Source: an uncultured Gammaproteobacteria bacterium (GTDB taxonomy: Bacteria > Patescibacteriota > Patescibacteriia > UBA10025 > JAHIVO01). From it: DNA of 59,194 nucleotides. A model generated the notes under the pieces. The model saw only the letters and a program-made list of their open reading frames with translations. It was not told the DNA's origin and searched no databases. The position numbers were made by a program, and so were the translations under genes. This document shows positions 39,098 through 39,399 of the stretch, piece by piece. Within the stretch, counting starts at the first letter, position 1, and each line of letters starts with the position of its first letter. The stretch lies in contig CAZVMV010000007.1 of assembly GCA_964628855.1 (NCBI GenBank), positions 1 through 59,194 on the forward strand, written 5' to 3'.

Positions 39098-39142
39098 AAA
39101 AAAGCCGCGCCCCGGAGAAGTCTCTGGTTTACGGCTTTTTTT
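39098..39142. terminator. Bidirectional terminator between the AI-2E gene and rpsU
   Basis: AAAAAGCCG...CGGCTTTTT inverted repeat overlapping the rpsU stop codon. Confidence 0.6.
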
Positions 39143-39323
39143 GTTTTTTCTGGCGCCTAATGTGCTGCTTATGCCTGGCGCGGTGCTCAGACGCTGAGGT
39201 GAACCGGAAATGACGGTCGAAGTCGTGTTTGGTTCCGGTTTTCCACCAAAGCCTAGAGAAGGCTTTGATTGATTTTTCGATCGGCTCACCAGGCTTGGGC
39301 TTGTATACAAAATTGGTGGCCAT
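39129..39323 (-). CDS. rpsU: 30S ribosomal protein bS21 (divergent)
   Basis: 64-aa basic protein; GEPIEKSIKAFSRL..KTG...D...H..F.S.SE.R matches the bS21 pattern. Confidence 0.75.
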   Translation of the reverse strand: MATNFVYKPKPGEPIEKSIKAFSRLWWKTGTKHDFDRHFRFTSASEHRARHKQHIRRQKKQKKP

Positions 39324-39351
39324 GCACCCTCCTATGTGAAAGTTTCAATCA

Positions 39352-39399
39352 AGTATAGCCACCGGTCTGGTTCACGTCAAGTTGATAAATTGGTATACT
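39352..39399. promoter_or_regulatory. Overlapping divergent promoters for rpsU and rsmI
   Basis: Minus: TTGACG(39380-39375)-17-TATACT(39357-39352). Plus: TTCACG(39371-39376)-17-TATACT(39394-39399) with a TGn extension, 6 nt before the rsmI ATG. Confidence 0.75.

Follow-up and report, generated by a model that had tools for sequence, protein, structure and literature searches.

Two bS21 genes led by Shine-Dalgarno sequences in a Patescibacterium, and a possible bS21 feedback through the 16S rRNA 3′ tail

Introduction

Why should one small ribosomal protein gene carry a strong Shine-Dalgarno (SD) sequence when the translation genes around it carry none? The question is posed by rpsU, the gene for ribosomal protein bS21, on the minus strand of contig CAZVMV010000007.1 of assembly GCA_964628855.1, whose 59,194 nucleotides constitute the window analyzed here. 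Judged by its sequence, the open reading frame (ORF) is a bS21 gene, the second of a pair in this Kerfeldbacteria-like Patescibacterium, a member of the candidate phyla radiation (CPR); it is called paralog B here.

In Flavobacterium johnsoniae and other Bacteroidia, rpsU is autoregulated by way of ribosomes that lack bS21 (Jha, 2021, PMC7797042; McNutt, 2023, PMC9976891; Arpin, 2026, PMC13000457; PMC13000453). Flavobacterium subunits free of bS21 translate rpsU faster (PMC9976891), and the 13-bp helix formed by the rpsU mRNA sterically excludes bS21 (PMC13000457). A search of the literature found this circuit described for Bacteroidia only, and no paper that connects bS21 and SD usage in Patescibacteria. 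New here are the arrangement as two paralogs, the SD change that compensates for a variant tail, the Chloroflexota counterpart, the recurrent internal bulge, the dichotomy in the base at position -1 and the correlation of a bS21 extension with SD usage, all described below.

The Two bS21 Genes

Read directly from the sequence, the minus strand carries in order TTGACG (39380-39375), a 17-nt spacer, TATACT (39357-39352), AGGAGG (39333-39328), GTGC and ATG (39323-39321), the part after TATACT reading ...CATAGGAGGGTGC-ATG. The sigma-70-like promoter TTGACG-17-TATACT (39352-39380) has 10/12 matches in a promoter scan, which returned 2 sites in a 700-nt region against 0.6 expected in shuffles. The SD AGGAGG (39328-39333) lies 4 nt upstream of the ATG, with C at -1, and the ORF (39129-39323) has 64 codons for a divergent bS21 of 64 amino acids (MATNFVYKPKPGEPIEKSIKAFSRLWWKTGTK...). 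The stop codon lies within a terminator-like hairpin, flanked by an A-run and a U-run (39094-39145, minus strand; -22.1 kcal/mol, z -3.0). The hairpin is absent from the output of a simple terminator scan, and it is probably bidirectional, serving the convergent AI-2E transporter gene as well. Since it has its own promoter and terminator-like hairpin, the rpsU-B unit is monocistronic and self-contained, and the layout in the original prediction stands. Control by a structured leader RNA was considered as an alternative. The rpsU-B leader has no significant structure (folding z 0.3), an Rfam search around both rpsU genes gave no match, and the paralog A leaders of 12 family members, compared by eye, have in common only a promoter, an SD, an 8-9 nt spacer and a GTG start.

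The sequence supports the ORF as a homologue of bS21. Paralog B matches Pfam PF01165 over profile positions 4-54 of 55 with E 3.4e-5 and 23.9 bits, below the gathering score of 27, and TIGR00030 with E 0.004 and 16.9 bits against a cut-off of 28.95. Its PDB sequence matches are all weak; four of the five are bS21 chains, and the fifth is an unrelated nanobody (E 1.3). Two genomes of the genus carry orthologues at this locus that clear the PF01165 cut-off, with 34.6 bits (G003) and 30.4 bits (G002), and B-type copies in several other genera reach 55-59 bits on the S21 profile, above paralog A. Aligned with paralog A and ten further B copies, paralog B shows what is expected of a full-length bS21: its 64 amino acids fall within the usual 55-75, it is basic and has a basic tail, and it carries a (K)PSE-like motif as well as the motif G-E-x-[IF]-E-[KR]-[AS]-[LI]-[KR]-x-F. 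An index of 5.8 billion proteins held no close homologues of the ORF.

The genome has two bS21 genes, and the window ORF is not the main one. The main rpsU, paralog A, lies on another contig (C6, 1952-2236, minus strand; 34.6 bits) and encodes 94 amino acids with a C-terminal extension (...EFLRKIGKLDDFIDPKRPNKRGTIKKLLQARVR). It is paralog A that has the truly extended SD, GGGAGGTGA upstream of a GTG start (cataGGGAGGTGAattaatcacGTG). Within the genus, paralog A is 95-98% identical and paralog B 50-69%.

The paralog B locus, between rsmI and the AI-2E transporter gene with an M16 peptidase gene beyond, recurs in 15 genomes of two families, and the rsmI neighbor flanks paralog B in 14 relatives. 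By sequence, then, paralog B is a fast-evolving second paralog, yet an old one. A phage origin was dropped because of this conserved chromosomal synteny; 50,697 phage records gave no match to paralog B. Many relatives have 2-4 PF01165 matches per genome. Several genomes of the same order have 3-4, some in tandem (G021 contig C12, G019 contig C6). At E 1e-4 or better, no PF01165 match was found in 18/81 sampled Patescibacteria genomes, including the whole of family f21 and most of f30 and f33.

Pairing of rpsU with the 16S rRNA Tail

No 16S gene was found in the assembly itself, and the tail was taken from two same-genus genomes. In 22/24 16S copies from relatives, these two genomes included, the 3′ end is GGAUCACCUCCUUUCU; the canonical anti-SD is thus kept, and most of the phylum-wide sample has the same canonical tail. 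A second 16S gene in one relative (G020, contig C45, locus L068) has the tail GGATCATCTCCTTTCT; that genome is 6% contaminated, and the copy may be foreign. Pairing energies were predicted as duplexes in ViennaRNA with a tail of 15 nt, the comparative values being those for the canonical tail GAUCACCUCCUUUCU.

Paralog A of this genome is predicted to pair at about -17 kcal/mol, in an extended helix of 10-13 bp that lies 8-9 nt upstream of the weak GTG start. The strong SD expected of rpsU across the CPR was found in each of three samples. Among relatives from genus to class, which are not phylogenetically independent, the rpsU-A median is -16.8 kcal/mol and 25/28 reach -12 kcal/mol or stronger. 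Parcubacteria-like loci were located through a protein pattern and not through the SD (the related-locus search used a six-sequence family alignment); here the medians are -17 to -18 kcal/mol, 47/48 reach the same threshold, and rpsU-A has the strongest pairing of its 20-kb locus in 41/44, while only 1-3% of 613 neighboring genes reach -12 kcal/mol. Paralog A starts with GTG or TTG in 41/48 loci. Forty genomes from 28 other families of the phylum give a median of -16.9 kcal/mol, with 30/40 at -12 kcal/mol or stronger and 29/40 strongest in the locus.

The Chloroflexota rpsU likewise combines an extended SD with a GTG or TTG start. With tails assumed canonical rather than read, its median is -16.1 kcal/mol, 86% (about 24/28) reach -12 kcal/mol or stronger, and 15/25 are strongest in the locus, among neighbors that use SDs about four times more frequently. 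In Chloroflexota/Dehalococcoidia loci (L121-L153) the leader reads GGAAGGAGTGAT(N5-6)GTG, which, if the tails are canonical, would pair over about 13 bp and leave one C of the anti-SD bulged. Since these SD-using bacteria share it, the extended rpsU SD looks, from the sequences compared, like an old rpsU-specific trait and not a by-product of SD loss.

In many lineages the rpsU-A leaders (L074-L193) have one bulged or mismatched base within the long complement, at a position that varies, while the 16S tail is canonical. Examples are GAAAG-A/C/T-GAGGTG, AAAGGA-A-GGTGA, GAAAGG-C-AGGTGAT and GAAAGGAGG-C-GAT. Such an internal bulge may tune the stability of the helix. In paralog B, all 15 copies have GGAGG or GGGAG 3-8 nt before the best start, with predicted energies of -9 to -13 kcal/mol; the SD of the copy in the window is predicted to pair with GAUCACCUCCUUUCU at -10.7 kcal/mol over 6 bp.

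Covariation with a Variant Tail

The tail departs from the canonical form in one family of Patescibacteria, where it reads GGAAUACC... or GGAACACC.... In genus g73 of family f36, whose tail is GGAAUACCUCC (AAUACC), the rpsU SD is AAGGAGGTATT in one genome (G114) and GGGAAGG-C-AGGTATT in another (G080); GGTATT thus stands where every canonical-tail genome has GGTGAT. Against their own tails the predicted energies are -16.1 and -17.9 kcal/mol, and against the canonical tail -12.5 and -13.4 kcal/mol, gains of 3.6 and 4.5 kcal/mol. Paralog A of the genome studied here loses 4 kcal/mol when paired with the AAUACC variant. An SD that follows a changed tail argues that bases beyond the classical core really pair, on the basis of one lineage, two genomes, one evolutionary event and two positions. 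The tail variants of G024, the G053 type and G054 are uninformative on this point. In another genome with the tail GGAAUACCUCC (G118, locus L243), the rpsU leader has GAATCACCTC directly before the ATG, which resembles the canonical anti-SD rather than an SD.

SD Usage in the Genome

The assembly comprises 984 kb in 18 contigs, is 79% complete, and has 941 genes and 91% coding sequence with a longest-ORF caller. Longest-ORF start calls dilute SD counts, and the starts of ribosomal protein genes and other conserved genes were checked by eye against familiar N-termini. SDs of at least 6 nt, 2-20 nt before the start, precede 5.5% of predicted starts (52/938 genes) and 1.3% of internal in-frame start codons, whereas SDs of 4 nt or longer show no excess at predicted starts over internal ones. 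Among operon-internal genes, 2.1% have an SD of at least 5 nt. Predicted pairing at -4 kcal/mol or stronger is found at 35% of real starts and 47% of mock sites, and only strong pairings, at -9 kcal/mol or stronger, are enriched at real starts. Full-tail duplex energies at weak thresholds fail to separate true starts from G-richer internal sites, and motif-based counts were added.

No SD was found before rpsL, rpsG, fusA, tuf, rpsJ through rplO, secY, adk and map, nor before rpsF, ssb and rpsR. The same holds within the window for rplT, infC, smpB, argS, the ileS-like and glyS-like genes, metG and atpB-C, whose leaders are A/T-rich, in agreement with the earlier description of its ribosomal, synthetase and ATP synthase genes. 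rpsU is the only translation-apparatus gene with an SD, though it is not unique among genes. It had been thought the only conserved gene so led; it is a conspicuous exception among translation genes, but the window also holds a CDP-alcohol phosphatidyltransferase gene (31569-32792) with AGGAGG 5 nt upstream of the ATG, and ten conserved families with SDs were confirmed genome-wide (purD, glmS, purF-like, uppS, an ABC ATPase, prs, hsp20, type IV pilin, class II synthetase-like and M29 peptidase). The expectation that core genes elsewhere would lack SDs is correct for the ribosomal protein operon and rpsF-ssb-rpsR; purD, glmS, uppS, prs, hsp20 and the pilin gene do carry SDs. Many SD-led genes are small orphans, and the six other SD-led ORFs of the window, besides the phosphatidyltransferase gene, match no Pfam family. 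In the type IV pilin gene (contig C11, 14947-15366, plus strand), which has an N_methyl motif, AGAAAGGAG lies 8 nt upstream of the ATG. On the plus strand of contig C3, AGAAAGGAGGT (25442-25452) and GAAAGGAGGTGATCC (25514-25528) stand about 70 nt apart with no long ORF downstream; over its 15 nt the latter is perfectly complementary to the entire 16S tail.

SD-led genes differ from SD-less genes in composition (G+C 0.530 vs. 0.474, p 2.5e-16) and in the base before the start. At -1, C is found in 57% of SD-led genes, while SD-less genes have U in 61% and G in 4%; internal in-frame ATGs have U in 15%. Window starts at 436 (minus strand), 40459 and 54907 (both plus strand) are examples of the U bias. 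Elsewhere U at -1 amounts to 43% in Kerfeld-like loci, 56% in other Parcubacteria-like loci, 43% in the 40-genome phylum sample and 25% in Chloroflexota. One speculation is that this U may pair with A37 in the initiator tRNA, adding a fourth base pair. The higher G+C of SD-led genes would fit recent import.

A Possible Feedback and Its Alternatives

How might these features work together? The likeliest mechanism, by analogy with Bacteroidia, is that bS21 feeds back on its own synthesis through SD-anti-SD pairing, a proposal that we regard as evenly balanced between acceptance and doubt. Most mRNAs of the lineage start translation without an SD, from A/U-rich leaders with U at -1, and both bS21 mRNAs would depend on pairing with the 16S rRNA 3′ tail, that of paralog B through a GGAGG core 3-5 nt upstream of its start. 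On rpsU mRNA the SD-anti-SD helix would form more easily with 30S subunits that lack bS21 than with those that have it, and a shortage of bS21 would then lead to more bS21 synthesis, a homeostatic feedback. In this reading bS21 occupancy would modulate initiation, and paralog B would be a ribosome component. Steric exclusion of bS21 by the helix could operate without a pocket of the Bacteroidia type, which would explain why SD-using Chloroflexota share the extended SD.

Several observations weigh against this feedback. The resemblance to the signature in Flavobacteria is one of sequence. The signature residues of Bacteroidia are absent: bS18 K/R37, F50, N56 and Q58 are replaced by T, V, S and Y, and Tyr54 of bS21 by R in paralog B, according to an approximate mapping made by eye from ungapped phmmer match ranges against 7jil chains w and z (F. 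johnsoniae). The C-terminal regions of both bS21 proteins are strongly basic, and bS6 lacks the W100/R103 helix feature, having a charged extension of about 75 amino acids without Trp. This extension (...AEERMVQEKVEQRMARERAEEKIASAPPPPAEEPAKPKAKDQEKK...) lies beyond the canonical domain; rpsF is on contig C3 at about 27000-27600 (plus strand). The CPR genomes G024, G027, G060, G087, G094 and G108 have rpsU without an SD, and the SD of paralog B is an ordinary one of 6 bp with no extended helix. Parcubacteria-like genes avoid SD-like motifs in their interior (observed/expected 0.57-0.77), which suggests an accessible anti-SD; this genome shows no such avoidance (0.85-1.08), and in Chloroflexota it is milder. 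The motif test thus gave conflicting results, and CCTCC is depleted too. Finally, a well-spaced SD precedes about 5% of genes, so that rpsU is not alone in being SD-led, and general SD-blindness of the ribosomes is therefore improbable. It is possible that the anti-SD is occluded by residues other than those of the Bacteroidia pocket.

The original prediction went further, to parallel evolution of anti-SD occlusion as in Bacteroidia. In that case bS21 would help to hide the anti-SD on the 30S platform, only bS21-free ribosomes would read SDs, and the GC-rich SD-led genes would be their regulon. An SD-poor genome with a conserved anti-SD, the scarcity of weak SDs before real starts, and the split between SD-led and SD-less genes in -1 base and G+C are all in its favor. 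So too is a correlation in the phylum sample, confounded by phylogeny, in which 5.3% of neighbors are SD-led where bS21 has the C-terminal extension (at least 76 amino acids) and 16.8% where bS21 is short (Fisher p 1e-6 for pooled genes; per-genome Mann-Whitney p 0.003). This correlation points to some bS21-linked effect, as a lead only. The missing pocket residues, the avoidance of internal SD-like motifs in related genomes, and the same extended rpsU SD in SD-using Chloroflexota, which indicates that SD-blindness is not required, leave full convergence distinctly unlikely, and the claim of parallel evolution was not upheld. That the orphan SD-led cassettes are co-regulated with rpsU, as was also suggested, is pure conjecture. 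It is still less probable that feedback by exclusion of bS21 by an extended helix is ancient and common to Patescibacteria, Chloroflexota and Bacteroidia, forming in Parcubacteria-type CPR part of a two-channel initiation system. In such a system the core mRNAs, with A/U-rich leaders, U at -1 and no SD, would be read by ribosomes carrying the long bS21-A, the C-terminal extension of which, specific to the CPR, would hold the 16S tail out of reach. The G+C-richer SD-led genes, with C at -1, and both rpsU mRNAs would be read by ribosomes that have no bS21 or the short bS21-B.

The same data can be read without any feedback. The SD would then be only an efficiency element, an old trait from a common ancestor with Chloroflexota, by which an mRNA that is monocistronic, very short and highly expressed recruits ribosomes to a weak GTG start. 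The matching SD and GTG/TTG starts of Chloroflexota rpsU would be expected on this account, the other SD-led genes here use SDs successfully, and the rpsU of Escherichia coli also has an SD using the GGUGA part of the complement. Yet other highly expressed first genes (rpsL, rpsJ, tuf, rpsF, rplT) have no SD, a helix of 10-13 bp far exceeds the needs of efficiency and should delay start-site clearance, the SD is kept in both paralogs at unrelated loci, and it tracks an altered tail; we consider this account unlikely. A rather doubtful but possible alternative concerns paralog B, which may be a bS21 variant with an accessory or condition-specific role, so that ribosomes would be heterogeneous as in Francisella, or else an RNA-binding protein that acts outside the ribosome. 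Its SD would then simply mark it as an SD-led accessory gene of the lineage. It evolves quickly (69% and 50% identity in the genus), falls under the Pfam gathering score in this genome, and is not seen in every genome of the family. Its G+C at third codon positions, 0.615, is like that of the SD-led class (0.63) and unlike that of paralog A (0.505), and its self-contained promoter-SD-ORF-terminator design resembles the SD-led cassettes. Against this stand the stable synteny across two families, the better fit of B than of A to the S21 profile in other genera, and the absence of a phage match. An accessory role for paralog B is compatible with the bS21 feedback proposed above.

Comparison with Known Systems

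The likeness to Bacteroidia is extensive. In both, an SD-poor lineage retains the canonical anti-SD, and rpsU stands out, in the CPR with a 10-13 bp extended complement of the tail at about -17 kcal/mol, while other ribosomal protein genes are SD-less. The core GGAGG is unusually distant from the start because the helix extends towards the start, and the rpsU SD co-varies with a variant tail, as in Chryseobacterium. The differences are equally clear. The CPR is a different phylum, with two SD-led bS21 paralogs of differing SD geometry; rpsR and rpsF here have no SD; about 5% of other genes are SD-led, whereas in Flavobacteriales rpsU is essentially the sole SD gene; and the pocket residues are absent. 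The bS21 C-terminus here is basic, with a CPR-specific extension of about 30 amino acids in paralog A (...E[FY]LRKIGKL...), many CPR lineages have one bulged or mismatched base in the helix, and the CPR circuit is a putative one.

Francisella tularensis also has more than one bS21 gene per genome, with sequences that differ and regulation that probably differs (PMC9578407, PMC13374519), and the mRNA leader of one of its bS21 paralogs mediates autogenous control (PMC9578407, PMC13374519). In Francisella, however, control is largely on mRNA abundance or stability by way of the 5′ untranslated region, not through a conserved extended SD as proposed here; its genome background is SD-using, and its bS21 paralogs are unrelated to the A/B pair. 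In E. coli, as here, bS21 is a small basic protein beside the SD-anti-SD helix, and the rpsU SD uses the GGUGA part of the complement (AAAGGTGAgaggcacATG). The E. coli pairing covers only about 6 bp at -8.5 kcal/mol, and rpsU there belongs to the rpsU-dnaG-rpoD operon, whereas rpsU here is unlinked to dnaG-rpoD. The E. coli protein is said, after Van Duin and Wijnands in 1981, to promote rather than hinder SD-dependent initiation. Like phage-encoded bS21 (PMC9723584; Al-Shayeb, 2020, cited in PMC7550191), paralog B is an extra divergent copy that could reprogram initiation; unlike it, paralog B has no match in phage records and occupies a conserved chromosomal locus.

Neighboring Features of the Window

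The divergent neighbor of paralog B (39382-40086, plus strand) encodes an rsmI-like 16S rRNA methyltransferase of the TP_methylase family (Pfam PF00590, E 3.3e-34), the true start of which is probably the ATG of MPTLYVVATPIGNLED. Its promoter, TTCACG-17-TATACT (39371-39399, plus strand), overlaps that of rpsU-B back to back, with TATACT as the -10 element in both. The convergent neighbor is an AI-2E family transporter gene (38037-39095, plus strand; Pfam PF01594, E 4.6e-77), which together with the M16 peptidase gene (36717-37997) completes the conserved synteny block.

Implications

The bS21 of Flavobacteria is the sole proven case of a ribosome altering its own protein composition to control one mRNA, and it has been treated as a trait of Bacteroidia. 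The same sequence signature is now seen across a second radiation, the CPR, which is very large and has been little studied. Together with the compensatory change, the two paralogs and the Chloroflexota counterpart, it suggests an old circuit with a wide distribution. It also offers a concrete way into the question of how translation begins in CPR bacteria when SD sequences are missing. In such genomes, gene callers guided by SD motifs will place start codons wrongly, and the minority of SD-led genes may form a separately controlled class.

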